Source of the DNA: Microcystis aeruginosa NIES-843
GTDB lineage: Bacteria; Cyanobacteriota; Cyanobacteriia; Cyanobacteriales; Microcystaceae
DNA: 32,000 nt
Assembly (NCBI RefSeq): GCF_000010625.1
Contig: NC_010296.1
Span: forward strand, 4,290,001 to 4,322,000
Direction: 5' to 3'
In this document: one piece after another, positions 4,853 to 31,777 of the stretch
Layout: the number at the start of each line of letters is the position of its first letter
How positions within the stretch are numbered: the stretch's first letter is position 1
Notes under the pieces: model-generated
The model's database searches: none
What the model saw: only the letters and a program-made list of their open reading frames with translations
Told to the model about the DNA's origin: nothing
Translations under genes and position numbers: made by a program

Positions 4853-4995
4853 GGCAAGCGCTGATTTTTCCCGAAGAATCAGTACAAGTCCCCAAAAAGT
4901 TAGTTTATCCCCCCGATTAATGGTTTAAATACCGATAATTCCCCCCTTGCAAGGCTGTCCAGATAGAATAAAGAGAAAGTAGGAGTTTAGTTAAA

Positions 4996-5559
4996 ATGTC
5001 TTTATCGCTGATTACCCGTAAGTTTACGGTGGAAGAATACGAAAAAATGGCAACCCAGGGAATAATCAAACCCGATGAAAAAGTGGAATTAATTCGAGGA
5101 GAAATTATCAAAATGTCACCGATGGGAACCCGTCATGCTGCTGGTATAGATCGATTAATACAATTACTTTATCAAAAATTAGGACAGAAAATTATTCTCA
5201 GAGTTCAAAATCCGATTAGATTAAATAATAATTCTCAACCAGAACCAGATTTAAGTTTACTAATACCTCGATCGGATTTTTATGTTGCTGCCCATCCTTG
5301 TCCTCAAGATATCTATTTAGTTATTGAAGTTTCCGATTCTACCCTCGATTATGATCGCTATACTAAAATTCCTCTTTATGCGGAGGCAAATATTCAAGAA
5401 GTTTGGATCGTCAATCTCAAGGAAAAATGTTTAGAAGTTTATCGCCATCCTCTGCATGGTAGTTATCAAGCTATTCAGAAATACTCTATAAATGAGAGGG
5501 TTTTTATGACATCTTTTCCCGATATAGAATTCACTATTGCAGAAATATTAGGAGTGTAG
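4996..5559 (+). CDS. Uma2-family (DUF820) putative endonuclease, copy 1
   Basis: 187 aa. The pattern FTVEEYEKM...ELIRGEIIKMSPMGTRHA...PEPDLSLL...IEVSDSTLDYDRYTKIPLYAEANIQEVWIVNL matches the restriction-endonuclease-like Uma2 family that is abundant in cyanobacteria. Confidence 0.8.
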   Translation: MSLSLITRKFTVEEYEKMATQGIIKPDEKVELIRGEIIKMSPMGTRHAAGIDRLIQLLYQKLGQKIILRVQNPIRLNNNSQPEPDLSLLIPRSDFYVAAHPCPQDIYLVIEVSDSTLDYDRYTKIPLYAEANIQEVWIVNLKEKCLEVYRHPLHGSYQAIQKYSINERVFMTSFPDIEFTIAEILGV

Positions 5560-5564
5560 TTAAA

Positions 5565-6134
5565 ATGTCTTTATCACTGATTACCCGTAAGTTTACGGTG
5601 GAAGAATACGAAAAAATGACAACCGAGGGAATAATCAAACCCGATGAAAAAGTGGAATTAATTCGAGGAGAAATTATCAAAATGTCACCGATGGGAACCC
5701 GTCATGCTGCCTGTATAGCTAGATTAACACAGTTATTTTATCGAAAATTTGGCGATCTTATTCTCTTAGGAGTGCAAAATCCGATTAGATTAAATAATAA
5801 TTCTCAACCAGAACCAGATTTAAGTTTACTAATACCTCGATCGGATTTTTATGTTGCTGCCTATCCTTGTCCTCAAGATATTTATTTAATTATTGAAGTT
5901 TCTGATTCTACCCTCGATTATGATCGCTATACTAAAATTCCTCTTTATGCAGAAGCAAATATTAAAGAGGTTTGGATTATCAATCTCAAGGAGGAATGTT
6001 TAGAAGTTTATCGTCATCCGCTGCATGGTAGTTATCAAGCTATTCAGAAATATTATCGAGGTGAAAGTATTTTTATTGAATCCTTTCCAGAAATAGAGTT
6101 AACTTTAATTGAAATACTCGGTAATATTTATTAA
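5565..6134 (+). CDS. Uma2-family (DUF820) putative endonuclease, copy 2 (tandem paralog)
   Basis: 189 aa, collinear with copy 1. The duplication period is 569 bp and includes the ribosome-binding region TAGGAGT(T/G)TAGTTAAAATG. Confidence 0.8.
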   Translation: MSLSLITRKFTVEEYEKMTTEGIIKPDEKVELIRGEIIKMSPMGTRHAACIARLTQLFYRKFGDLILLGVQNPIRLNNNSQPEPDLSLLIPRSDFYVAAYPCPQDIYLIIEVSDSTLDYDRYTKIPLYAEANIKEVWIINLKEECLEVYRHPLHGSYQAIQKYYRGESIFIESFPEIELTLIEILGNIY

Positions 6135-8642: not shown

Positions 8643-9380
8643 ATGGCACTCGTTAAGGTTAAAGCAAGAATGTCTATTCAGACTCGTGTAGCGCGCATCA
8701 GCAGTTTATTATTATTGCTAGGGTTATTCGGTTGTAGTACCCTTGCTGACCTAGGTATTGCCGTTCCCTACATCGGTGATCCTCCCCTAACAGCGATCGA
8801 GCAATTACAGGAAAAACCAAAAGGCACTTTAGTTTATCTTAGGGGAACCGTGAGCAATTATGCCCCTTTTTTAGCGGGAGGAGCCTATCTTTTGCAGGAT
8901 AAGTCTGGTAAGATTTGGATTCGCACCAATAGCAATAAATTACCCCGTCAAGGCGAAGAAATCGTCATTAAGGGCAAAATTGACTTTGAAGCTATTCCCC
9001 AGGGTTCCCAAACCGTTAACGAATTGTATGTGGTGGAATTAGAACAGATGGATGCAGTAGCGGTTAATTCTCTTCCTACTCCCTCCCCGTCCCCAGAAAT
9101 TAAACCCTCCCCCACCTCAGAAGTTAAACCCCCAGAAAACAATTCTCCCCCGGTTTCAACTAAACCCCTCGAAAATCCCCGACAGGTGACAATTCCCAGC
9201 GCAGCTGAAACGAAACCCCCAGAAACTCCCGTCGTTACCCCCGTTAAACCCAATCCACCCGTGCAACCCGTCGCAGAAGCGATTCCCCCCAAACCCCCCG
9301 CAGTGGTTAAACCCGTCCCAGACCCCCTCGATGCCTTCTTTTTACCCCATAAACAAAGCGAGAAAAACAGTAAACAGTAA
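8643..9380 (+). CDS. putative lipoprotein with an OB-fold-like domain and a Pro-rich C-terminal tail
   Basis: Signal and lipobox [22 protein letters not shown] (the alternative ATG at 8670 is plausible). The segment [28 protein letters not shown] is OB-like. The tail is rich in P, K and V. The stop codon lies inside the CAGTAAA repeat array. Confidence 0.65.
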
Positions 9381-9435
9381 ACAGTAAACAGTAAACAGTA
9401 AACAGTAAACAGTAAACAGTAAACAGTAAACAGTA
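9368..9435 (+). repeat. heptanucleotide tandem repeat (CAGTAAA), 9 full units plus a partial
   Basis: Units indexed at 9368, 9375 ... 9424. Three consecutive units supply TAA in all three forward frames. Confidence 0.95.
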
Positions 9436-9448
9436 GCGGGGCAAACAG

Positions 9449-9809
9449 ATGGAGAGTAAAGTTTATGACAAAGCTTATAAATTTGCCCTTAGGATTGTTA
9501 AAGGCTATAAATATTTTTGTGAGACTAAACAAGAATATATTTTGTCAAAACAGTTATTAAGGAGTGGCACTTCAATCGGGGCTAACATTTCCGAGGCTAA
9601 TGGAGCTATTTCTAACGCTGATTTTCGAGCTAAAATGTCAATAGCTTATGAAGGAATGTCTAGAAACAAAGTATTGGCTGTCTCTATTGAAAGACACGAA
9701 TTACATAGAGGAAAGAGCCTTTCAAAGTATCAATGATGATGCGGAGGAAATTGGTAAAATGCTTTGGGCTATTCTAAAAACCTGCCAAGAAAATACCAAA
9801 AACCAATAA
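9449..9809 (+). pseudogene. four-helix-bundle protein (23S rRNA intervening-sequence protein family) interrupted by a 1-nt frameshift near 9650
   Basis: Frame 1 gives MESKVYDKAYKFALRIVK...SKQLLRSGTSIGANISEANGAISNADFRAKMSIAY and then degenerates. Shifting +1 after 9649 gives KECLETKYWLSLLKDTNYIEERAFQSINDDAEEIGKMLWAILKTCQENTKNQ*, ending at 9807-9809. That is the expected continuation (KE..ETKYWL) for this family. Confidence 0.8.
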
Positions 9810-9842
9810 CTGATAACTGATAACTGATAACTGATAACTGAT
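9810..9842 (+). repeat. heptanucleotide tandem repeat (CTGATAA), 4 full units plus the partial CTGAT
   Basis: Units at 9810, 9817, 9824 and 9831. The last partial unit, CTGATG, supplies the ATG of the NUDIX gene at 9841. Confidence 0.95.
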
Positions 9843-12710: not shown

Positions 12711-12745
12711 TTATCAGTTATCAGTTATCAGTTATCAGTTATCAG
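12711..12745 (-). repeat. heptanucleotide tandem repeat, 5 units of TTATCAG on the plus strand (CTGATAA on the minus strand)
   Basis: Units at 12711, 12718, 12725, 12732 and 12739. On the minus strand the array lies just upstream of recR. Confidence 0.95.
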
Positions 12746-12794
12746 ATTTGAGTTTTCAAGTGAGCAGTGTTACATGGAAGTTTCCTGCTGTCTT

Positions 12795-13497: not shown

Positions 13498-15537
13498 ATG
13501 GCGGGTAAAACTCAACTTAAGAAACAAGAAAAGCAATTATCTCAACTTGATCTGACCCCTTCTGACGGTAACAACCTCGAAAAAGTTGCCCCCGTCAAAC
13601 ATTGGTCGATCGAAGATAGCGAAAATCTCTATCGCATCCAAGGCTGGGGAGAACCCTATTTCTCGATCAATGCCGCAGGAAATATTACCGTCTCGCCTCA
13701 GGGAGAAAGGGGCGGTTCTTTGGACTTATACGAGTTAGTTTCGGCGATTAAGCGGCGAAATATCGGTTTACCCCTGTTAATTCGGTTTAGTGACATCCTT
13801 GAGGATCGGATCGAGCGCCTGAATGCCTGTTTTAGCCGAGCGATCGCCCGTTATAATTATCCCAATGTCTATCGCGGTGTCTATCCGATCAAGTGCAATC
13901 AACACCGTCACATCGTCGAGTCTTTAGTGCGTTTTGGTAAACCCTATCAATTTGGGTTGGAGGCTGGTTCAAAACCAGAGCTAATGATTGCTTTAGCTAC
14001 CCTAGAACCAGCCTTAAACGGCAAAAATGACAAAACACAACCATTGCTAATTTGTAACGGCTATAAGGACAAAGAATACATCGAAACCGCTCTTTTGACC
14101 ACTCGTCTCGGTCATCGGCCTTTGATTGTCATCGAACAATTGGAAGAATTATATTTAACCCTGCGGGTCAGTCGTCAGTTAGGAATTGCCCCACATTTGG
14201 GAGTGCGTGCGAAACTGGGGACAAAAGGGGTGGGCCGTTGGGGATGTTCCACGGGAGACCGGGCAAAATTCGGTTTAACCGTCCCGGAAATCTTGACGGT
14301 GGTGACGGAATTAGAACAAGCGGGGATGTTAGATTGTCTGCAACTGCTGCACTATCATATCGGGTCGCAAATCTCCGCTATTAGCGTCATTAAGGATGCT
14401 ATTCGCGAAGCTAGTCAGATTTATGTGGAATTAGCGAAATTAGGGGCAAATATGACCTATCTCGATGTGGGGGGTGGTTTAGGGGTCGATTACGATGGCT
14501 CAAAAACTAACTTCTACGCCTCAAAAAACTACAATATGCAGAATTATGCCAATGATATCGTGGCCGAGGTCAAGGAAGCTTGTGAAGATGCCCAGATTTC
14601 ACCCCCAATTCTCATCAGTGAAAGTGGCCGGGCGATCGCTTCTCATCAATCGGTGTTAGTCTTTGATATCTTGGGAAGTAGTGAGGTTCCCCAAAACCCT
14701 CCCGATCCCTGCAATGGGAAAGAACACCTCATCCTCCGTAATCTCTGGGAAACCTACACGGGTATCGATGAGCGCAATTATCAGGAAGCTTATCACGATG
14801 CGGGACAGTTCAAAGAGGAGGCGATTAGTCTGTTTAATTTCGGTTATCTCAGTCTCAAGGAACGAGCTAGAGCCGAACAATTGTACTGGGCTTGTTGTCA
14901 CAAAATTCTGCAAGTGGCCCGACAAGAGGATTATGTTCCCGATGACTTGGAAGACTTAGAGCAAATTATGGCCTCAATTTATTATGCCAATCTCTCGGTT
15001 TTTCAGTCAGTTCCCGATAGTTGGGCGATCGATCAACTATTTCCAATTATGCCGATCCATCGTCTTGATCGAGAACCTACTCAAAGAGGAATTCTCGCCG
15101 ATTTAACCTGTGATAGTGACGGGAAAATTGCCCAGTTTATCGATTTGCGCGGGGACATAAAATCAGTTTTAGAATTGCATCCGTTGGAGTACAAAAACGG
15201 GAAACATTCTCCAGAACCCTATTATCTAGGAATGTTTTTGGTGGGTGCTTATCAAGAGATTATGGGCAATTTACATAATCTTTTTGGCGATACTAACGTG
15301 GTACATATTCAGATGAGTCCCAAGGGGTACGATATCGAGTATCTAGTCAAAGGAGATACGATCACGGAAGTATTAAGTTATGTGCAGTATTCTGCGGAAG
15401 ACCTGTTAGAAAGAATTCGTCTTCGTTGTGAACAAGCTTTGCAGGAAAATCGCATGACTGTGGAAGAATCCCAGTTACTACTACAGGATTATGAACGCAG
15501 TTTGCGACGTTATACCTATCTAGTGGGTGGGGATTAA
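13498..15537 (+). CDS. speA: biosynthetic arginine decarboxylase
   Basis: 679 aa. WSIEDSENLYRIQGWGEPYFSINAAGNITV, YPIKCNQ, LEAGSKPEL, HYHIGSQI and DVGGGLGVDYDG are typical of SpeA (PLP-dependent, group IV decarboxylase). Confidence 0.93.
   Translation: MAGKTQLKKQEKQLSQLDLTPSDGNNLEKVAPVKHWSIEDSENLYRIQGWGEPYFSINAAGNITVSPQGERGGSLDLYELVSAIKRRNIGLPLLIRFSDILEDRIERLNACFSRAIARYNYPNVYRGVYPIKCNQHRHIVESLVRFGKPYQFGLEAGSKPELMIALATLEPALNGKNDKTQPLLICNGYKDKEYIETALLTTRLGHRPLIVIEQLEELYLTLRVSRQLGIAPHLGVRAKLGTKGVGRWGCSTGDRAKFGLTVPEILTVVTELEQAGMLDCLQLLHYHIGSQISAISVIKDAIREASQIYVELAKLGANMTYLDVGGGLGVDYDGSKTNFYASKNYNMQNYANDIVAEVKEACEDAQISPPILISESGRAIASHQSVLVFDILGSSEVPQNPPDPCNGKEHLILRNLWETYTGIDERNYQEAYHDAGQFKEEAISLFNFGYLSLKERARAEQLYWACCHKILQVARQEDYVPDDLEDLEQIMASIYYANLSVFQSVPDSWAIDQLFPIMPIHRLDREPTQRGILADLTCDSDGKIAQFIDLRGDIKSVLELHPLEYKNGKHSPEPYYLGMFLVGAYQEIMGNLHNLFGDTNVVHIQMSPKGYDIEYLVKGDTITEVLSYVQYSAEDLLERIRLRCEQALQENRMTVEESQLLLQDYERSLRRYTYLVGGD
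15494..15535 (+). repeat. direct repeat copy 1 (last 42 bp of speA)
   Basis: AACGCAGTTTGCGACGTTATACCTATCTAGTGGGTGGGGATT recurs at 22011-22052 with one mismatch (T/C). Confidence 0.9.
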
Positions 15538-16261
15538 TAGAGGTTACTTGTGGGGGAAATTTAGCTCATTTTCCCTTTTTAAAGCATTGATCGCAGAATT
15601 TTGGGCTAATGCTACCTCTGGTAGTACATTTATATGTATTTTCTCACTCCTTTCTTGCCGTCCCGCAGGAGGGAAGCGACATCAACATCTATTTCGTAAA
15701 AATTTAGTTACAAATACTTTGCGATTTGTGTCAATAACTTGCTACCTGCTACTTTTGCTACAGGAAATAGGTACAATTGCTGGTAGAGAAAGAATCTTTA
15801 TTGAGGCACCAAAGACCCAGGCAGTGCATACGATTAGATCGCACCCCCAGTGTATATCAATCAAAGTTTTTACCTGACTTATATACTATGCGATTGTACT
15901 GTCCAAGTCAACATGGTGAAAGGCCATGAATACAGGATCACAGACGAATTTAGTAAGCAGAAACCGCTTCCACCGGCGAGCTTCTCTGAATTTTAACTAG
16001 GATTTTTCTATTTCTGCTGAATTACCGCCACTTGATCACGAGTCCATCTATTCCCTGCATCGTGTAGTCTCAAGCGTGAGTGGCAATGATAGTCAAGAGT
16101 CGTCCCCGACCTTGGCAGAGATGAATTTTGCCGTGAGCGAGACTAAATCGACGGTAAGGCGGGGGCAGATATCGAAATAACCCCCAACTCCTCAGAAATA
16201 AGTATCGACAGTTAGGAACCAACCCCTGACCTCACATCTGAAGCACTCAAGGAGAAAAAAT

Positions 16262-18295
16262 ATGCTTGACCAAAGTTTCAACCTATCAGACAGCAATGTT
16301 TTAGATGATATCTTCCAGTTACCAACCCTTGTCGTGGAATCAGGTTTAGGACGCTCCGATTTGATTACCCCTGTTTCCGGTAAAAGTCTCCAGGGCATGG
16401 ATTCTGGCTTTTTAAGCAATTCTGTGGAAGAATACCGGCTAGAACTAGAAAATCGCTGGCAATCATCCCAATCCCTTTCCTCTTGGCTTAACGGCGATGA
16501 TTTTTTAACAGGTCAAAGTAGTTTTGTGGGTCTTCCCAGTTCTGTTGACCTAGCCGGCAATACCCTCGCCACAGCCAGAGCGATTACAGTCGGTCCCAGC
16601 ACCACCAGTTACACCGATTGGGTAGGAAGCACCGATACCAACGATTACTATCGTTTCACCCTCGCTAATTCTGGTAACTTTAATCTCAATCTAACCGGAA
16701 TGACCGCCGATGCGGACGTGCTACTGTTAAATAGTAGCGGTTCTGTCATTGCCTCCTCTACTAACGGTGGTACGGCTTCTGAGAGCATTACCCGTCAGTT
16801 GAGTGCAGGCACCTACTACATTCGTGTCTATCCCTATAGTGGCAATACCAACTATAATCTCGCTGTTTCGGCTACTGGCGGTGGTAATGTTGACCTAGCC
16901 GGCAATACCCTCGCCACAGCCAGAGCGATTACAGTCGGTCCCAGCACCACCAGTTACACCGATTGGGTAGGAAGCACCGATACCAACGATTACTATCGTT
17001 TCACCCTCGCTAATTCTGGTAACTTTAATCTCAATCTAACCGGAATGACCGCCGATGCGGACGTGCTACTGTTAAATAGTAGCGGTTCTCTGATTGCCTC
17101 CTCTACTAACGGTGGTACGGCTTCTGAGAGCATTACCCGTCAGTTGAGTGCAGGCACCTACTACATTCGTGTCTATCCCTATAGTGGCAATACCAACTAT
17201 AATCTCGCTGTTTCGGCTGGTGGAAGTGACTGGTTTAGTCAAAATCTGCGCGATGCAGGATTGATCAGTACAGCACGTTCTCTCGCTGCGGATGGTAACC
17301 TTAGCCGCAATGATATGATTAGCATTTTCCGTAATGCTGAAGATGGTAGTGTCATTGATGCCACTGAGTTAACGGATTTGCGTACCATTGTTAGTAATGC
17401 TAGTCGCTTTACCATGCAGAACCCTGTGGTATTTCTCTCGAATAGCATCGCGAATGGCAATACCGCTAACCAATGGTGGACTGGTGGTGGTTCTACCCGT
17501 CAAACATTAGGCAACCTCTATGCTGGCAGTAGTGCAACCCAAATGGAACGATTGATTGGAAAATGGTTCTTGGGATTAGATCGTCCAACGGCTGCCAGTG
17601 GAACAACTTACCGTTCTTGCAGTGGTTCACTGCTCCAAAGTGGCGTTAGCTATCAAGATATCAATCAAGGTAATCTAGGTGATTGTTACCTCCTAGCTGC
17701 TTTAGCAGGAACAGCTTACCGTACTCCTAGTACCATTCAAAATATGTTCACCGACAACGGTGACGGTACCTTTACCGTGCGTTTCTTCCGCAATGGGGTA
17801 GCTAACTATGTAACAGTCGATCGTTACTTACCAACGACTGCTTCTGGCTCTTTCTATTATGCCAACCGGGATCGGGGTTTGCTTTATAACAATACTGGAA
17901 ATGAATTATGGGTGGCCCTCGCTGAACGAGCCTATGCTCAAATTAATGAATCGGGTTGGATTGGACAAGATAACACCAACTCCTACGCAGGAATTAACGG
18001 AGGTTGGTCGGATACGACGGTTCAGCAGATTACAGGGCGCAACACTGTCCGTGATTATACCTTAGACAATAGCGATCGCACGGCTGTGATTAATGCCTTT
18101 AATGCCGGTCGAATTGTCTTCCTTAACTGGGCAGGTCATGCTCTCACCTTAGTTGGTTACAATCCAACAACTCAACTGTTTACTATCTATAATCCTTGGG
18201 GTCATGCTGATAATTTCACTTGGAATCAAATTATCAATGGCACAGGAACGGGGCATGAACAACGCTTCACAGATTGGAGCTATACCACGACCTAA
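16262..18295 (+). CDS. calpain-type (peptidase C2) cysteine protease with two N-terminal PPC (pre-peptidase C-terminal) domains
   Basis: 677 aa, with the Shine-Dalgarno sequence AAGGAG upstream. The PPC motif DTNDYYRFTL...ADADVLLLNSSG...GTYYIRVYPYSGNTNYNLAVS occurs twice. Calpain active-site motifs: QGNLGDCYLLAAL (Cys475), AGHALTLVGY (His626), IYNPWGH (Asn644). Confidence 0.85.
   Translation: MLDQSFNLSDSNVLDDIFQLPTLVVESGLGRSDLITPVSGKSLQGMDSGFLSNSVEEYRLELENRWQSSQSLSSWLNGDDFLTGQSSFVGLPSSVDLAGNTLATARAITVGPSTTSYTDWVGSTDTNDYYRFTLANSGNFNLNLTGMTADADVLLLNSSGSVIASSTNGGTASESITRQLSAGTYYIRVYPYSGNTNYNLAVSATGGGNVDLAGNTLATARAITVGPSTTSYTDWVGSTDTNDYYRFTLANSGNFNLNLTGMTADADVLLLNSSGSLIASSTNGGTASESITRQLSAGTYYIRVYPYSGNTNYNLAVSAGGSDWFSQNLRDAGLISTARSLAADGNLSRNDMISIFRNAEDGSVIDATELTDLRTIVSNASRFTMQNPVVFLSNSIANGNTANQWWTGGGSTRQTLGNLYAGSSATQMERLIGKWFLGLDRPTAASGTTYRSCSGSLLQSGVSYQDINQGNLGDCYLLAALAGTAYRTPSTIQNMFTDNGDGTFTVRFFRNGVANYVTVDRYLPTTASGSFYYANRDRGLLYNNTGNELWVALAERAYAQINESGWIGQDNTNSYAGINGGWSDTTVQQITGRNTVRDYTLDNSDRTAVINAFNAGRIVFLNWAGHALTLVGYNPTTQLFTIYNPWGHADNFTWNQIINGTGTGHEQRFTDWSYTTT
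16544..17218 (+). repeat. 345-bp tandem duplication inside the calpain gene (two PPC-domain units)
   Basis: 16544-16873 matches 16889-17218. By eye they differ only at the codon GTC versus CTG (V/L, about 3 nt). Confidence 0.9.
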
Positions 18296-18320
18296 AAAAC
18301 ACTCTCTGTAGAATATTAAG

Positions 18321-18347
18321 TATAAGGTGGGCAAAGCCCACCTTATA
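18321..18347 (+). terminator. stem-loop TATAAGGTGGGC-AAA-GCCCACCTTATA just after the calpain stop
   Basis: 12-bp perfect stem, 26 bp downstream of the stop codon. It lacks a clean U-tract, so terminator function is only plausible. Confidence 0.5.
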
Positions 18348-18357
18348 TCAGCTCCGG

Positions 18358-18879
18358 ATGATTGAGGTAATGATGTTTAACTTGAGCAAACTTTTCTTTT
18401 TTCTGGTCTTAACAACTTGTAGCGGTTGTTCTCCAATCAGGTTCTCGCCAACCAGTAATTTACCAACTAATTTTATGAGGGAAATGAATATGCCTATTAC
18501 TGAAAATCTGCCAATTAAAAATATCACACTTGTTTCTAGAGAAGAGAGAATTCCTCCCAAGGGAGTGTCACCGCATCCTAACCGTGATATCGCCTTTGCT
18601 GACGTATTTGTTCACTTAGAAAACTCTCAGGAAACAACAATAAAACTCAACATTCAAAAGATTGAAATACGGAATGTTTCTGATAGTAAATTACAAGACT
18701 TTAGTTTTGTCCCCCAAACTGTTGAATTAAAACCCCTAGAAAATTCTGAACTTGTCTTTCATTTGAGCAATAAAACTGGTTATGTTGGACAGGACAAAGT
18801 TAAAGCTGTTCTTGCCTATCAAGTCAAAAATCAGGTTAGAGTCATTGAATCGGAAGCAGTGACAGTGAATAATAATTGA
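18358..18879 (+). CDS. small putative lipoprotein or secreted protein, beta-rich
   Basis: I prefer the internal starts at 18358, 18370 or 18373 (MFNLSKLFFFLVLTTCSGCSP, signal-like with Cys) over the track start at 18274, which overlaps the calpain gene and the hairpin. No family was recognised. Confidence 0.6.
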   Translation: MIEVMMFNLSKLFFFLVLTTCSGCSPIRFSPTSNLPTNFMREMNMPITENLPIKNITLVSREERIPPKGVSPHPNRDIAFADVFVHLENSQETTIKLNIQKIEIRNVSDSKLQDFSFVPQTVELKPLENSELVFHLSNKTGYVGQDKVKAVLAYQVKNQVRVIESEAVTVNNN

Positions 18880-18897
18880 GCTAAACTCGTCTAGTAG

Positions 18898-18940
18898 AGT
18901 AACGCACCAACAAGAAAAGAAAAGTTTTTGATGCGTTACT
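18898..18940 (+). terminator. hairpin AGTAACGCA ... TGCGTTACT (9-bp stem, 25-nt loop) downstream of the lipoprotein gene
   Basis: Read directly. The loop is large, so support is weak. Confidence 0.3.
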
Positions 18941-19176
18941 GCAATATTAATATCTTGATTGTTTCTCTAAAAATAAGGGATTGACCAGCGCAACCTACTG
19001 AATATTTTCTGGAATTTTATTCCCCTGCGGAGAATTTCAATAACTCTGCCAGGGAATTATAGCGTTTCCTAAGCTAGTGAGGTACACCTATTTTTCTTCC
19101 CTTTTGCCTAAAACCCATAACTTTTGTACCTCAGCAGACTGCAAAACGCTATATCTTCAATAAACCTCTTGTATAA

Positions 19177-19273
19177 TTATAGTCATTTCAGATAATTCTG
19201 ATACAGTCTAGACCGACAAAATCCTTATGAACTCTGGGATTGATATTCTCAATCTTAATTGAAATGACTATAA
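19177..19273. repeat. 97-bp element bounded by a 14-bp perfect inverted repeat, TTATAGTCATTTCA / TGAAATGACTATAA
   Basis: Indexed at 19177-19190 and 19260-19273, in an AT-rich non-coding stretch. It is MITE-like. Confidence 0.55.
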
Positions 19274-19510
19274 CTTTTAAGAGTTCAAAAACGGCAAAAA
19301 TAACAATTAAATTGCATCAAATATATAAATAGAGCATTTAATTGGTTATTATTCATTTCTAATTCTCCTGACCAGTGATACTAAATCCGTTGAGTATAGG
19401 CTACATATCAGGACAGGCAAAAGGCAATAGGCAATAGGCAAAAGCGGAAATAAATAATCAGTTTTTAATAACCAGATTTAGTATGACTATTGGCTACTGA
19501 CTCCTAACCC

Positions 19511-20755
19511 GGCTCTTCTAGGTTCTGTGTGAGCATGGTATAATAGTAACACAGAACAGGAGGTGGGTTATGTGGATAAATTTTGATCAACTCCTCGATT
19601 TACCAAATGTAACAGTGGTCAATTATCAAAAAATTGATGAGACAATTTTCCTAAAGCTCGCTCTTTTAAATGAAACAATTGAATGTCCGAATTGCCATCA
19701 AACCTTGGACAGAATCAATCAGACAGAGTATAATCTAGTCAGAGATTTGTCAATATTAGGCAATCGAGTATATTTGGAAGTACCACGCCGCCAGTTTCAT
19801 TGTCAAAAGTGCCAAAAGTATATCAGCGAAAGACTAAGTTTTATGAGATTAAGACAGCATCATACAATTCGCTATGAATCGATGATTTATGAGAGAGTAA
19901 AAAATTGTAGTATCGAAGAAATAAGTCGAGAAGAAGGGTTAGGATGGTCAGAAGTTGAGTTAATATTTAATCACTGTGCTAAAGAACTAGAAAAGGAAGA
20001 GTGGGAAGCACCAGAACGAATAAGCTTAGATGAATTTAGTAACTTAAAAGGACACAAAGATTTCATAACAACGGTCGTAGATCTGGACAAGAAAATTTTA
20101 CTAGATGTGATTAAAGGACATAAGCAAGAAGAATTAATGGAAGCCTTAAAAGCACAGCCAGAGGCAGTTCGGGAGAAGGTGAAAGAAGTGAGCGTCGATA
20201 TGTGGTCAGGATTTACAGCAGTGATCAAGGAATTATTTCCTAATGCTAAAATCATCTATGATCGTTTTCATGTAATGGCTATCATCAATGACGAGCTTAA
20301 TAAATTGAGAAAATTAATGGGGGTGCATGAAAAAGGATTACCTCATTTATTATGGAAGAATAAAGAGGACTTAAAAGACGAGCAAAAACAACAACTAGAA
20401 GTTATCCTGAAAGAACATCCCTGCTTGGGAATAGCCTGGGAAATGAAAGAAGAAATTAGACAAATTTATCAAAGTAGTAGAACGTTCAGAGGTGCTGAGA
20501 GAAAATTGGAAAAATGGATAAGAATAGGCGGAATATTATATGAAAGTGGTGCCAGCATGATCCAGAAGCATTTGCAGGGTATTTGTAATTACTTTGAAAA
20601 TCATACAACCAACGGATTAATTGAGGGAATGAATACCAAAATAAAGCTTATTAAAAGAATGAGTTATGGATTTACCAATTTTCAACATCTTCGACTTAAG
20701 CTGTTTGCTTGCTTTAATTCATAACAAAAATTAACACACGAAAACCAGAAGAGCC
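19511..20755 (+). mobile_element. ISL3-family insertion sequence (copy 1), about 1245 bp
   Basis: Left IR GGCTCTTCTAGGTTCTGTGTG at 19511. The reverse complement of the right end reads GGCTCTTCTGGTTTTCGTGTG, ending at 20755. The flanking direct repeat is CCTAACCC (19503-19510 and 20755-20762, with a one-base boundary ambiguity). Confidence 0.88.
19570..20724 (+). CDS. ISL3-family transposase
   Basis: 384 aa. N-terminal zinc-finger-like CPNCHQ...CQKCQKY, the motif DMWSGF..DRFHV, and the C-terminal TNGLIEGMNTKIKLIKRMSYGFTNFQHLRLKL. Confidence 0.9.
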   Translation: MWINFDQLLDLPNVTVVNYQKIDETIFLKLALLNETIECPNCHQTLDRINQTEYNLVRDLSILGNRVYLEVPRRQFHCQKCQKYISERLSFMRLRQHHTIRYESMIYERVKNCSIEEISREEGLGWSEVELIFNHCAKELEKEEWEAPERISLDEFSNLKGHKDFITTVVDLDKKILLDVIKGHKQEELMEALKAQPEAVREKVKEVSVDMWSGFTAVIKELFPNAKIIYDRFHVMAIINDELNKLRKLMGVHEKGLPHLLWKNKEDLKDEQKQQLEVILKEHPCLGIAWEMKEEIRQIYQSSRTFRGAERKLEKWIRIGGILYESGASMIQKHLQGICNYFENHTTNGLIEGMNTKIKLIKRMSYGFTNFQHLRLKLFACFNS

Positions 20756-20821
20756 CTAACCCTAAGAACAATTTTTGATTTTTACAACAGGTCTAATTTT
20801 TATATCATCAATTATAAGTAC

Positions 20822-21427
20822 CTAGGCAAAATTAATTACATACTCGCCTCCAAAATTGTCCAGCACTTTTTTAACGTAAGCGAGGAGGCTCTTTCGGTCT
20901 TTATAGGCGCTAAATTCAATCCATTCATATTTTAAAAATCTCCATAATATTTCAATTAAATTTAAATGAGGTGAATAAGTGGGCAACCAAAATATTTTCA
21001 AGTTTTTCTTTTCCCATTCCTCAAGTTTCTCCATAAATGCCTCGCTGGTATGAATGGAAGCTTGGTCAATTATTATGACAGTTTTTTTCTGTATATTTTG
21101 GCAATATTTATCCAGAAAATTAATAACTATCTCGCTAGTAACCGTTCCGACCTGTGTCTCATAAAATAATTGATTATCTCGTTTCATTATTCCTAAAATA
21201 TTTAGTCTTTTACCTTCAATTGGTGGTAACTTTATCGTGGTTTTTTCTTCTTGCCAAGCCTCAGGAATACAAGGCTTTGAATCCCCTCCCATTTCATCCA
21301 AATATCCTATCTCAATCTCTCCTCTTTTTTCCTGTTTTTTTAGTTCTTCTAAAATAGGTAGTTTGACCTCAAGCTCCCACTCATCAGGGGTTTTGGCGAC
21401 CCCTCTTCTCACCCTTTTCCACCTCAT
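20822..21427 (-). CDS. IS630 transposase, DDE catalytic part (orfB; the frame is open upstream to the slippery site)
   Basis: IIIDQASIHTSEAF and FWLPTYSPHLNLIEILWRFLKYEW are typical of IS630/Tc1-mariner DDE domains. Confidence 0.85.
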   Translation of the reverse strand: MRWKRVRRGVAKTPDEWELEVKLPILEELKKQEKRGEIEIGYLDEMGGDSKPCIPEAWQEEKTTIKLPPIEGKRLNILGIMKRDNQLFYETQVGTVTSEIVINFLDKYCQNIQKKTVIIIDQASIHTSEAFMEKLEEWEKKNLKIFWLPTYSPHLNLIEILWRFLKYEWIEFSAYKDRKSLLAYVKKVLDNFGGEYVINFA

Positions 21428-21495
21428 GTTGATTTTTTTTATAAGTCTTTTTATCGTGTCTTTGCTTACGGTTAATTTCCCTTCTTCTACAATTT

Positions 21496-21819
21496 TTATC
21501 TGGATTTTTTTAAGCTTTTCGGTTCTTCTTTTACCCAGTCAATAACTTGTTGACCTTGGGCTTCTGTCAATTTAGGTTTTCTCCCTCTTCCTCGACGATT
21601 ATAAAAACCAATTAGTTTTCTATCTTCCCAGGCCGTCAACCAATTATAGATGGTCTTTCTCGTAACTCCAAATATTCCGCTCAATTCTTCTATCGTGGTT
21701 CCCTGAAAACTTAAGAGTATACATTTCGCTCGCTCTCTTACTTGATGATGTTTACTAGCTCGATAAATTCTCTCTAGCATTTTCTGGCTCTCGGGGTTTA
21801 GGTCTCTAATCAATCTCAT
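21496..21819 (-). CDS. IS630 transposase, HTH DNA-binding part (orfA)
   Basis: 107 aa. The helix-turn-helix segments ERAKCILLSFQGTTIEELSGIFGVTRKTIYNWL and RGRGRKPKLT are seen in IS630 N-termini. Confidence 0.85.
   Translation of the reverse strand: MRLIRDLNPESQKMLERIYRASKHHQVRERAKCILLSFQGTTIEELSGIFGVTRKTIYNWLTAWEDRKLIGFYNRRGRGRKPKLTEAQGQQVIDWVKEEPKSLKKSR
21505..21511 (-). promoter_or_regulatory. A AAA AAA slippery heptamer, a candidate programmed -1 ribosomal frameshift site joining orfA and orfB
   Basis: The run of 7 T on the plus strand is read in the orfA frame as TTA AAA AAA. A -1 slip continues as ATC CAG ATA AAA..., giving ..SLKK-IQIKIVEEGKLTVSKDTIKRLIKKINMRWKRV with no stop until the orfB terminus. 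The fusion is about 332 aa. Confidence 0.7.
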
Positions 21820-22010
21820 TGTATTTTCCTGCTGCTTCGTTTTTTTATGTATTATACTTCTTAATTTTTTATTTGGGTAATTAATTTTGCATGACTACTT
21901 ATCATCAGTTAAGTCCAACTCTTTCTTGGCGAACACGCACCCCGCAGGACGATCAAGAATTTTGATAATATTGGTTCTAAGCTGTTCAGCATCTAAATAG
22001 CGTATATAGC

Positions 22011-22052
22011 AACGCAGTTTGCGACGTTATACCCATCTAGTGGGTGGGGATT
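22011..22052 (+). repeat. direct repeat copy 2 (duplicate of the speA 3' end)
   Basis: AACGCAGTTTGCGACGTTATACCCATCTAGTGGGTGGGGATT followed by GA. In the speA frame it would read ..SLRRYTHLVGGD followed by TGA. Confidence 0.9.
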
Positions 22053-22131: not shown

Positions 22132-24147
22132 GTGGAAAAGGGAACGCTGGTAGAATTTCGAGTCCAAGGAGAAAGGCGCTTAGGGGTGATCGATCGCCCA
22201 GAAGGTAAAAAAGATTGGATCGTCATCGATCAAGGGGGAAACCCGCATAAACTGCGTCCCCAACGCTTCGATTACATTATCAAAGCAGGTCCATCCAACT
22301 ATAAAGAGATCGCCAATTTTCTGCGGGAAGTCCAACCCTATCTAGATCCTAGTGGTTTAGAAGTGGCCTGGGAATTATTAGCCGGGGAAAATCAGTTAGT
22401 CACTCCCGAAACCATGGCCGAGATTCTCTTTTCCGATCGCGGTCCGCAGTTTTGTTATGCGGCCTATTGTCTCTTGAGTGATGATAAAGTTTATTTTAAA
22501 AATAAAGGGGATGGTTACGAGGCCCGATCGGAAAATCAGGTAGAGGAAATCAAACACCAGCTAGAGGTGGAACAACAGCGTCAACGGGAAAAAGGCCAAT
22601 TTCTCCAACGTCTCCAACAGGCCCTGGCCGGTGAAACGGTAGAATGGTCAGAAAGCGATCGAATTCGTCTGGAATCTCTAGAAAAATTTATCCTCCAACC
22701 CGAACAAAAATATCCAGCAGCCATGGACATACTCTCGCTGCTGGGCCGTTCCCAAACCCCCGAGGCTGCTTTTGAATTGTTAGTCGATTTGAAATGGTGG
22801 AGTAGTCACGAAAACCTTTTCCTGCGACGCAGTTCCTACCCCGTTCAATTCTCGAAAAAGGTACTTGATGTGGCGCGTCTTAATTTACTCAATCCCCCTG
22901 CGGATGCGGATGTCAACAATCGTCTCGATTTAACCCACCAAAAAATTTATACCATCGACGATGAAAGTACCGAGGAAATCGATGACGGATTATCGGTGGA
23001 AATGCTCGCGGATGGTGGTCATCGTCTCTGGATCCATATTGCCGATCCTAGCCGTTTAGTGCTTCCCGATGATGAATTAGACCTAGAAGCACGTCGTCGC
23101 AGTACCAGTCTTTATCTTCCCACGGGAATGGTTCCCATGTTTCCCCTAGAATTGGCCGCCGGTCCGATGAGTTTGGTACAGGGTAAACTTTGTCCCGCAT
23201 TGAGTTTTGGGGTAATCCTCGATGAAACAGGGGCGATCGCAGATTATCGGATTCATCCTAGTACAATTAAACCTACCTATCGCCTCACCTACGAAGATGT
23301 GGACGAAATGTTACATCTGGATCTGCAGCATGAACCGGAAGTAAGGATTCTCAACCGTTGGGCAAAACAACGCCACGCATGGCGCAAATCTCAGGGATCG
23401 ATTAACATCCAAATGCCAGAATCATCCATTAAGGTGAAGGATAACGACGAAATTATCGTAGAATTGCAGGAAGTTTCTCCATCTCGGCAATTAGTGGCGG
23501 AAATGATGATTTTAGCCGGAGAAATCGCCGGTCGCTACTGTCAGGAACACGAGATACCCGTGCCTTTCCGCGGACAACCACAACCGGAATTACCCCCCGA
23601 TGAGGAGTTAATTTTACTACCCGCGGGCCCGGTGCGTTCCTGTGCCTTGCGTCGCTGTATGCCGCGCAGTGAGATGACGACGATTCCTAACCGTCATGCT
23701 AGTCTGGGATTGAATACCTATTCCCAAGTAACTTCGCCAATTCGCCGTTATACTGACCTTTTGACCCATTTTCAACTAAAAGCCCATCTCCGGGGCGATC
23801 AACTGCCTTTTACCCGGGATAGAATGCAGGAAATTCTCTATAGTGTCGCTAGTTCGGCCCAAGAAGCCACCTCGGTGGAACGACAAACTAATCGTTATTG
23901 GAGTTTGGAATTTTTGCGACGACAGGGAGATCAAGTCTGGCAAGCTTTGGTGTTGCGCTGGCTGCGGGAAGAGGAAAATTTAGGCTTGATTTTATTGGAG
24001 GAATTGGGGTTAGAATTACCCCATCGTTTTGAGCGCTCGGTATCTTTAGGCGATCGCTTTCAAGTGCAAGTTAGTCGCTCTGATCCCCACCGCGATGAGA
24101 TCCGTTTTCGCGAGTTATCGGGTTTTGTCTCCTCCCAAGCAAGTTAA
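22132..24147 (+). CDS. RNase II/R-family 3'-5' exoribonuclease (RNB domain)
   Basis: 671 aa with a GTG start. Motifs: YTIDDESTEEIDDGLSVE, IHIADPS, and HASLGLNTYSQVTSPIRRYTDLLTHFQLKA (RNB catalytic motifs). The C-terminus is S1-like. Confidence 0.9.
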   Translation: MEKGTLVEFRVQGERRLGVIDRPEGKKDWIVIDQGGNPHKLRPQRFDYIIKAGPSNYKEIANFLREVQPYLDPSGLEVAWELLAGENQLVTPETMAEILFSDRGPQFCYAAYCLLSDDKVYFKNKGDGYEARSENQVEEIKHQLEVEQQRQREKGQFLQRLQQALAGETVEWSESDRIRLESLEKFILQPEQKYPAAMDILSLLGRSQTPEAAFELLVDLKWWSSHENLFLRRSSYPVQFSKKVLDVARLNLLNPPADADVNNRLDLTHQKIYTIDDESTEEIDDGLSVEMLADGGHRLWIHIADPSRLVLPDDELDLEARRRSTSLYLPTGMVPMFPLELAAGPMSLVQGKLCPALSFGVILDETGAIADYRIHPSTIKPTYRLTYEDVDEMLHLDLQHEPEVRILNRWAKQRHAWRKSQGSINIQMPESSIKVKDNDEIIVELQEVSPSRQLVAEMMILAGEIAGRYCQEHEIPVPFRGQPQPELPPDEELILLPAGPVRSCALRRCMPRSEMTTIPNRHASLGLNTYSQVTSPIRRYTDLLTHFQLKAHLRGDQLPFTRDRMQEILYSVASSAQEATSVERQTNRYWSLEFLRRQGDQVWQALVLRWLREEENLGLILLEELGLELPHRFERSVSLGDRFQVQVSRSDPHRDEIRFRELSGFVSSQAS

Positions 24148-31733: not shown

Positions 31734-31777
31734 TGATACTAAATCCAGTTATTAAAAACTGATTTAGTATGACATGG
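31734..31777. repeat. hairpin ATACTAAATCCAGTT-ATTAAA-AACTGATTTAGTAT
   Basis: Near-perfect 14-15-bp stem with one bulged C. Its arm sequences, TGATACTAAATCC and GATTTAGTATGAC, also occur at 19375-19388 and 19476-19488. Confidence 0.6.

Follow-up and report, generated by a model that had tools for sequence, protein, structure and literature searches.

The ICEs and CIMEs found at the 3′ ends of fda, rplL or rpsI in streptococci resemble the arrangement at speA that is described here. CIMEs and integrase-less relics at the 3′ ends of protein genes are exemplified by the fda site of ICESt1/ICESt3 in Streptococcus thermophilus, and for the CIME systems a cognate element is known that bears an integrase and uses that att site, and their excision has been demonstrated. 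The speA locus lies in a 32,000-nucleotide stretch of the Microcystis aeruginosa NIES-843 genome, referred to as a whole as the window. Like a CIME, it is an island bounded by repeats of a housekeeping gene's 3′ end, with the gene intact and no recombinase inside; unlike the CIME systems, no integrase-bearing element, attP or second cargo was found at speA.

The other closely related class is insertion with long target duplication (Nobusato et al. 2000, Gene 259:99; Furuta, Abe & Kobayashi 2010, NAR 38:2428, PMC2853133). Among the cases that Furuta et al. list are H. influenzae repeats of 46 bp that overlap the 3′ ends of genes, and one of 88 bp from the comparison of Microcystis NIES-843 with PCC 7806 (PMC2853133), and their operational criteria were an insert of <20 kb, a repeat of >30 bp, no mobility gene and an empty site in a relative. 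At speA, accessory genes spanning <20 kb (6.5 kb now, ∼4.1 kb before the arrival of IS elements) likewise lie between direct repeats of >30 bp (42 bp, or 45) that duplicate a target present in one copy at the empty site; the unit, a protease and lipoprotein cargo, carries no integrase, transposase or other mobility gene of its own, the IS elements being missing in L083 and L098; conspecific genomes include an empty site, the uninterrupted target with one repeat being seen in the relatives L001, L002, L003, L004 and L006; and the repeats overlap a gene 3′ end, as the 46-bp repeats of H. influenzae do. It differs from the published cases in that the cargo is a protease–lipoprotein pair and not a restriction-modification system, which is a criterion of the published screen rather than of the phenomenon, in that the whole duplication falls within the end of the upstream coding region and breaks off in the stop codon, and in that the polymorphism is old and was later colonised by IS elements and MITEs. 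The locus either extends this little-studied class past restriction-modification cargo or else marks a cryptic att site at speA; it does not overturn current views, and its value is that of a worked example and a possible handle on the insertion mechanism.

Duplication of the speA 3′ end

The repeat pair and the genes on either side of it are as follows.

13498..15537, + strand: speA, biosynthetic arginine decarboxylase, intact (Pfam Orn_Arg_deC_N, Arg_decarb_HB, Arg_decarbox_C)
15494..15535, + strand: direct repeat copy 1 (coding), followed by the insert-specific AATAGAGG, which completes a TAA stop
22011..22052, + strand: direct repeat copy 2, no longer coding and subject to drift; the ancestral TGA stop and ancestral intergenic sequence come next
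22132..24147, + strand: rnb, RNase II family exoribonuclease (Pfam RNB and RNase II accessory domains)

The final 42 bp of speA, AACGCAGTTTGCGACGTTATACCTATCTAGTGGGTGGGGATT, were recovered at the same coordinates (15494-15535 and 22011-22052) and with the same single mismatch (T to C, Tyr to His) as had been noticed in a preceding sequence-only reading of this DNA, and the repeat reaches 45 nt if two mismatches are allowed. Two matches to the 42-mer occurred in none of 100 dinucleotide-preserving shuffles. Copy 1 comprises the last 41 coding nucleotides of speA plus the T of its stop codon, is invariant across all filled alleles and matches the empty-site consensus. Copy 2, as that reading had also held, still translates in frame as the end peptide RSLRRYTHLVGGD followed by TGA; it carries one or two SNPs depending on the strain and is shortened to 22 nt in L086. 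The sequence-only reading had considered that copy 2 might belong to a larger speA pseudogene, which would have undermined it. Pairwise alignment of the 240-bp flanks of both copies, however, found no similarity outside the repeat, the likeness ending at 45 nt, so copy 2 is not a portion of such a pseudogene.

A search for the 42-mer elsewhere, which had been proposed as a check, placed it only at the speA site in the window and all fetched loci, and no viral contig contained it. The 42-mer folds no better than its shuffles; a tRNA or structured-RNA target was looked for and no tRNA or Rfam RNA matched; and scans for promoters and terminators at the junctions gave nothing exceeding chance.

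Empty and filled alleles of the speA–rnb junction

The gene rnb is the ancestral right-hand neighbour of speA and adjoins it in five Microcystis genomes. The sequence-only reading had inferred that speA once stood directly before the exoribonuclease gene and had expected relatives to show an empty site with one 42-mer, and just this was seen in five Microcystis species representatives (L001, L002, L003, L004 and L006), in which speA, a single 42-mer, the TGA stop and rnb follow one another; it is thus not the case that all relatives are filled and lack the repeat. In the alignments of these five, the blocks on either side of the insert are adjacent and overlap by 45 nt on the empty side. The insert is present on at least 12 other contigs, and both its left and right junctions are sharp and the same in every filled allele. 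The speA gene of the window is 98-99% identical to Microcystis speA. Because other strains keep an intact empty site, this is a real presence/absence polymorphism, fairly ordinary and of a kind already described, and, in a cyanobacterium that forms blooms, it is a clearly documented case of polymorphic gene gain, with empty, IS-free filled and several independently decayed versions.

The locus derives from a single ancient insertion of an ∼4.1-kb segment between speA and rnb in an ancestral Microcystis. On the left, the segment was attached behind the first base of the speA stop codon, and on the right 42 bp upstream of that point; with the joining points offset in this way, both sides have the 42 bp. 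In copy 1 speA stays complete, the AA of the insert making a TAA stop instead of TGA, so the gene end was regenerated as had been supposed, and since the left junction lies inside the stop codon the SpeA protein is unchanged; copy 2 preserves ∼120 bp of native sequence upstream of rnb. Afterwards copy 2 drifted, different lineages acquired MITEs and three IS families in the tail, and the population has kept filled as well as empty alleles.

We consider it very unlikely that the polarity was the reverse, namely that Microcystis was filled at first and that recombination between the 42-bp repeats then removed the cassette from the empty genomes. Such a deletion would recreate the observed empty site exactly, the insert alleles are 4-6% apart and so at least as divergent as the flanks (1.5-3.8%), and the flank haplotypes are unsorted by presence or absence; the adjacency of speA and rnb was found only in Microcystis, and because the two are not neighbours elsewhere, outgroup polarity is uninformative. 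None of the empty sites, however, shows the variants of copy 2 (C at position 24, A at 37 or 38), and a duplicated, non-functional speA end would still need the original insertion, so that reversed polarity would change only how the empty alleles came about and leave the feature itself what it is. Among the 74 non-Microcystis loci fetched, none had a duplicated speA end, and a search for further contexts with the rnb protein of the window returned only 2-kb contigs. Other indels near the speA locus overlap by 7-9 bp only, so a general process of long duplication is not seen there.

Cargo of the insert

Between the repeat copies, the window contains the following.

15536..16261, + strand: left inner end and leader; six-frame Pfam search empty, no Rfam or tRNA match
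16262..18295, + strand: cargo gene 1, calpain-type (Peptidase_C2) cysteine protease with PPC and Peptidase_C2 domains (Pfam)
18358..18879, + strand: cargo gene 2, small lipoprotein with lipobox, conserved partner of the protease
18880..19510, no strand: non-coding tail, 631 bp, 34% GC, with MITE-like dispersed repeats at ∼19178-19272 and 19376-19487
19511..20755, + strand: ISL3-family IS, secondary; terminal inverted repeats GGCTCTTC.../...GAAGAGCC, target duplication (C)CTAACCC, 7-8 bp
20756..20816, no strand: tail remnant between the two IS elements, part of it a dispersed repeat
20817..21899, − strand: IS630-family IS, secondary, transposase in two ORFs; TA flanks at 20815-20816 and 21900-21901
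21900..22010, no strand: right inner end, unique sequence, ending ...GCGTATATAGC and abutting copy 2

The original insert of ∼4.1 kb, now grown to 6.5 kb, consisted of a leader, the calpain/PPC protease, its partner lipoprotein and a repeat-ridden tail. The contents given in the sequence-only reading held part by part, with one correction: its AT-rich spacer of ∼630 bp is there, at 34% GC, but is made up largely of dispersed MITE-like repeats. The first stretch after speA, 724 bp, contains no recognisable gene. Within the leader, 15536-15824 is unique sequence, 15825-15893 and 16149-16261 are similar to the sequence that precedes a core S8 peptidase gene, and 15894-16148 is a probable MITE that is absent from some alleles.

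By Pfam and NCBIfam annotation, the cargo is a PPC and Peptidase_C2 protein and an uncharacterised lipoprotein. The protease gene has two tandem PPC units (a 345-bp repeat, 16543-17187), and its 5′ 1 kb shares 94% DNA identity with the 5′ part of the core S8 peptidase gene (L090). Proteins 41-43% identical to the lipoprotein are encoded directly 3′ of a calpain homologue in Dolichospermum (L092) and Pseudanabaena (L093), and L097 has a 166-aa gene directly after a calpain homologue at ∼73% DNA identity, so that a strain-variable calpain-type protease travels together with a conserved lipoprotein partner. Mobility borne by the cargo itself was rejected, the two-gene module standing without flanking repeats in Dolichospermum and Pseudanabaena. 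The right inner end always stands next to the 42-mer and nothing else in an exact-pattern search, by which divergent copies would be missed, and a 59-aa frame abutting copy 2 had no homologue among 5.8 billion proteins. The composition analysis of segment against flanks that had been suggested gave no foreign signal in GC (42.4% versus 41.3%) or in codon usage, which is native.

This native composition and the partial paralogy to a core Microcystis locus (the S8 peptidase upstream region and 5′ end, up to 94% DNA identity), by which the source could be within the genus, would suit an origin by replication template switching or Campbell-type homologous recombination. In the first, a fork past the speA stop would jump to a donor, copy ∼4.1 kb and return 42 bp upstream, for which an insertion with a flanking duplication is the expected footprint; in the second, a circle already carrying 42 bp of speA homology would integrate by a single RecA crossover. 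Both are unlikely. Clear microhomology is absent at both joints, the search for a donor, where the insert ends would run on into other sequence, found none, and the S8 similarity begins 290 bp inside the insert and could be a later gene conversion, while the Campbell route leaves it to be explained how the circle came by its 42-mer, and such a junction was not found. In the search for a second location or donor locus of the insert ends, none appeared; the right inner end was sought by exact pattern, so divergent copies would be missed.

Later arrival of IS elements and MITEs

The segment had been taken to be a single integrated unit of 6.5 kb, and this part of the sequence-only reading has to be revised to ∼4.1 kb, since both IS elements came later: the ISL3 is precisely missing from L083, L098 and L081, and the IS630 from L083 and L098. 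In their place, an IS701, a MITE or a deletion reaching into copy 2 is seen in other lineages. ISL3 and IS630 here, and IS701 and MITEs elsewhere, lie inside the region with a short target duplication each, as in IS-mediated or composite-transposon insertions. Such an origin was nonetheless rejected, because these repeats are also there in the IS-free L083 and L098 and every IS is flanked by a short target duplication of its own. In contrast to a composite transposon, the IS elements are secondary and not at the insert borders, the insert has neither terminal inverted repeats nor a target duplication of short fixed length, no inverted repeats were found between its ends, and 42 bp is far above any transposase target duplication.

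Search for mobility functions

No integrase, resolvase or transposase domain was found in the cargo, and six-frame translations of the leader and tail gave no Pfam match at E ≤ 10, so that no hidden integrase or gene remnant was found there. A recombinase gene or its remnant was likewise lacking in the window and in each of at least 12 filled alleles, the divergent L086 included. Nor did an exact-pattern scan of metagenome and viral contigs reveal a joined attP-like junction (...GCGTATATAGC–42-mer–AATAGAGG...), which is weak negative evidence since assembled contigs seldom capture circles, and the reconstructed attP was not enriched in arm-type repeats. Searches of known plasmids and phages returned only short MITE-like matches to the insert, which speaks against a phage or plasmid origin, and the protease–lipoprotein cassette was the only cargo found at the speA site. 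The earlier remark that integrase, tRNA and plasmid genes are missing thus stands after domain, RNA and plasmid searches; of the att-site integration proposed with it, the regeneration of the speA end holds, and the rest is by analogy only, no integrase or remnant, attP junction or other element at the site having been found.

The insert may still be the relic of a site-specific integrative element, CIME- or satellite-like, a tentative explanation to which we give some weight. Its attP would have held the last 42 bp of speA, copy 1 would be attL and copy 2 attR, and a tyrosine or serine integrase module would have been deleted early or have acted in trans, with only cargo left between the att sites. 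The repeats do coincide with a target site at a housekeeping gene 3′ end, and the gene is exactly restored, the identity stopping within the stop codon and the element supplying the stop; the junctions are sharp and the same in all alleles; the arms of a former attP could survive in the unique, conserved non-coding inner flanks (286 bp left, ∼110 bp right); and the C at position 24 of copy 2 in several lineages, against T in all empty sites, is compatible with an attP-derived left half. Against this, none of the at least 12 filled alleles, L086 among them, has a recombinase gene or remnant; neither a joined attP form (metagenome and viral contigs) nor the 42-mer (viral contigs) was found; arm-type repeats are lacking; a single cargo type was seen at the site, no other element was found to use this attB, and the 74 non-Microcystis loci did not show a duplication of the speA end; and one extra event would be needed, a clean loss of the integrase before the sampled alleles diverged.

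Joining of offset ends by host repair as a proposed explanation

An integrase-free long target duplication fits at least as well as the att-site route, and we put the probability of a host-repair origin, i.e. of an insertion with long target duplication carrying cargo other than a restriction-modification system, at roughly 45%, not far above that of the integrative-element relic. The joint would then have come from host break repair or recombination with no dedicated integrase. As a candidate route, staggered breaks 42 nt apart could have been filled in; alternatively, the two ends of the incoming fragment may have been joined at offset positions on two chromosome copies. Several points count against long target duplication. 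The class is a descriptive one whose mechanism has never been shown experimentally; no donor locus of the insert ends was found; the other indels near the locus overlap by 7-9 bp only; and the speA stop codon is the exact place of the left junction, for which a random joint within the tolerated interval has an estimated chance of roughly 5%. Such a stop-restoring junction would be expected of an attP that had evolved to leave its target gene whole.

There is also the possibility, which we hold only tentatively, of an insertion mechanism that places cargo at gene ends while preserving the sequence of both neighbours. If this is true, the many filled and empty alleles in bloom metagenomes would offer a natural system for studying the insertion mechanism.

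Two copies of the speA end enclose an insert at the speA–rnb junction

The 3′ end of speA, AACGCAGTTTGCGACGTTATACCTATCTAGTGGGTGGGGATT at 15494-15535 (copy 1), recurred with one mismatch at 22011-22052 (copy 2), bearing out the 42-bp duplication claimed from the sequence alone; a repeat finder allowing two mismatches gave a length of 45 nt, and two matches turned up in 0 of 100 shuffles that preserved the window's dinucleotide composition. Copy 1 is the end of an arginine decarboxylase gene of 679 aa with all three Pfam domains, and copy 2 translates in frame to RSLRRYTHLVGGD, then TGA. Membership of copy 2 in a longer speA pseudogene was rejected by aligning 240 bp around each copy: similarity was confined to the repeat, so copy 2 is an isolated fragment. 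No tRNA gene or Rfam family was found.

Features from copy 1 to rnb
724 bp 3′ of copy 1: stretch without recognisable gene (leader)
16262-18295: protein with PPC and Peptidase_C2 domains (calpain-type protease)
18358-18879: lipobox protein
631 bp: spacer, 34% GC
19511-20755: ISL3 element, inverted ends GGCTCTTC/GAAGAGCC, target duplication of 7-8 bp, (C)CTAACCC
20817-21899: IS630 element, flanked by duplicated TA
From 22132: rnb, RNase II gene

With the speA protein as query against one genome per species, Microcystis accounted for six loci of 98-99% identity, and no other locus exceeded 80%. In five of the six (L001-L004 and L006), window segments 12.1-15.5 kb and 22.0-24.2 kb mapped to adjacent segments with a 45-nt overlap, giving the order speA, a single 42-mer, TGA, a 77-nt intergenic stretch and rnb; the sixth (L005) is filled, and its contig terminates within the protease gene. 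The empty site with one 42-mer predicted for relatives is hence present, and insertion into the ancestral speA–rnb junction, the main inference of the sequence-only reading, is confirmed.

Copy 1 was the same in all filled alleles and equal to the consensus of the empty sites, while copy 2 had 1-2 strain-dependent substitutions (position 24 to C; 37 or 38 to A), as expected because it is non-coding now. Outside Microcystis, speA and rnb lie apart, which leaves no outgroup to settle the polarity. Were the filled state the older one, deletion between the repeats would regenerate the empty site exactly, and some empty alleles could be secondary; however, the copy-2 variants were carried by none of the empty alleles, and we regard such a reversed history as very unlikely.

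The inserted unit of about 4.1 kb was later colonised

Further filled alleles (L081-L089 and L098) were collected by a protease homologue search and contig look-ups. ISL3 and IS630 were both exactly absent from L083 and L098, which matched the window on either side of each element. Six contigs (L082, L084, L085, L087, L088, L089) departed from the window at ~21980, where an IS701-family element starts in the three that were read (L082, L087, L088), the contigs ending within or just past it; the non-coding 3′ part of the insert (tail) holds a MITE with GGGACTTAG ends in L081, and the M. novacekii allele (L086) lacks most of this tail as well as 20 nt at the start of copy 2. Because the two IS elements are exactly absent from two alleles and other elements occupy others, the inserted unit is ~4.1 kb, composed of leader, protease, lipoprotein and tail, and the rest is later colonisation. 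The proposed 6.5-kb accessory insert thus stood as an insertion but not in size and make-up: the unit measures 4.1 kb, and the IS elements joined it afterwards.

Dispersed Microcystis repeats lie in the tail at about 19178-19272, 19376-19487 and 20755-20809; further copies occur at different loci and on a Microcystis plasmid, and a 46-bp stretch is shared with Microcystis phages. The 95-bp element at 19178-19272, probably a MITE, has 98% identity to a plasmid stretch of Microcystis aeruginosa FD4, and one is also present in L091, a locus with a core S8 peptidase gene; the 46 bp of spacer at 19443-19488 are 97.8% identical to phages Ma-LMM01 and MaMV-DH01, and this short repeat is dispersed across Microcystis loci (L091, L006, L003, window 31736-31764). 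About 255 bp of the leader (15894-16148), probably a MITE insertion, are missing from L085 and from the equivalent stretch preceding the S8 peptidase gene in L091.

Joints and mode of insertion

All filled alleles have the same borders: speA sequence 5′ and insert sequence AATAGAGG 3′ of copy 1, and insert sequence ending in GCGTATATAGC 5′ and ancestral GATGATTGC 3′ of copy 2, with no inverted repeat between the insert ends. Together, the alleles show a single insertion event with a 42-bp target duplication and no recombinase of its own, followed by IS and MITE colonisation.

We tentatively prefer insertion with long target duplication (probability roughly 0.45), which requires no lost gene. 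This class, drawn from genome comparisons, comprises accessory genes of <20 kb with repeats of >30 bp that lack a mobility gene and have an unoccupied site in a related genome; its examples include 46-bp repeats over gene 3′ ends in H. influenzae and, in Microcystis, a case of 88 bp (PMC2853133), and a later paper states that DNAs not encoding restriction-modification systems fall under it too (PMC3457768). The speA–rnb insert agrees with the class in insert size, repeat length, lack of a mobility gene and the empty site in relatives, and departs from it in cargo, which is not a restriction-modification system. Its joints would have formed by staggered breaks and then fill-in, or alternatively by attachment of the ends at positions offset between two chromosome copies. 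Template switching and Campbell-type recombination seem improbable sources. Other indels of the neighbourhood had overlaps of 7-9 bp only, so a general long-duplication process finds no independent backing in this sample. The insert is well documented and unsurprising for a Microcystis genome.

The insert may instead derive from a site-specific integrative element whose integrase was lost, a somewhat less probable source. The strongest point for this reading is the left joint, which lies within the stop codon, where AATAGAGG converts GAT-TGA to GAT-TAA, so speA is restored exactly; for this a random joint in the interval tolerated by both genes has an estimated ~5% chance. Against it, the integrase must have been lost early and cleanly, and many searches were negative. 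The absence of integrase and tRNA from the insert held up: neither recombinase nor transposase domains occurred in the cargo proteins, translating the leader and the IS-free L083 tail in all six frames gave no Pfam match at E≤10, and the only longer frame adjoining copy 2, a 59-aa stretch on the minus strand that lacks a start codon, had neither a Pfam match nor a homologue in a set of 5.8 billion proteins. Metagenome and viral contigs lacked the joined junction expected for circular or extrachromosomal DNA, viral contigs lacked the 42-mer, and plasmid and phage records lacked the cassette; the right inner end always neighboured the 42-mer, never other sequence; the joined junction reconstructed as attP had no excess of repeated 8-11-mers as candidate arm sites; and none of 74 non-Microcystis loci from the speA scan carried a duplicated speA coding end. 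Of the suggested att-site integration, regeneration of the gene end stands, via TAA, but with no integrase or joined junction found the att analogy is unproven.

Composition, cargo genes and age of the insert

The composition check proposed with the insertion revealed no foreign signature: GC was 42.4% in the IS-free insert versus 41.3% in the window, and codon usage of both cargo genes fell inside the spread of neighbouring core genes. Insert alleles diverged by ~4-6% and flanks by 1.5-3.8%, and flank haplotypes did not sort by insert presence or absence; the polymorphism is thus old, or reshuffled by homologous recombination.

Over its first 1 kb and part of its upstream region (16245-17217), the protease gene matched the 5′ portion of a core S8 peptidase gene at up to 94% DNA identity (L090 9984-10956; also L091), so the PPC module has undergone exchange within the genus; one N-terminal PPC module is common to two different secreted proteases, probably via recombination or gene conversion. 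A 345-bp tandem repeat in the protease gene (16543-17187, copies 99% identical) encodes PPC units, of which other Microcystis alleles have one, two or three (proteins of 554/562, 666/677 and 778 aa; compared: L098/L086, L081, L087), so its number is strain-variable.

A lipoprotein gene of ~165 aa was always 3′ of the calpain-type protease gene: in the window (16262-18879), in Dolichospermum (L092 8001-11506) and Pseudanabaena (L093 8001-10879) at 41-43% protein identity, and in a further cyanobacterial contig (L097 3282-6330), where a 166-aa gene immediately follows the calpain homologue at ~73% DNA identity. The two genes form a conserved module, with the lipoprotein, a family without Pfam or NCBIfam model, possibly an inhibitor or anchor. 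The Dolichospermum and Pseudanabaena modules lie in unrelated loci and have no flanking repeats; in Pseudanabaena yagii (L093 8001-15153) the module is ~2.3 kb from speA, with two opposite-strand genes between, and this same neighbour pair is probably coincidence.

Elsewhere in the window, a tandem array at 562-845 comprises about six 37-bp units, each with a palindromic CCCCCCTTATCAAGGGGG motif, and a 569-bp tandem duplication (4972-5840, 91% identity) is made up of two adjacent ~188-aa genes (4996-5559 and 5565-6134). Heptanucleotide tandem repeats of the AAACAGT/TAACTGA type in several intergenic regions (9351-9441, 9786-9837, 12712-12746) resemble the short tandem repeats usual in cyanobacteria.
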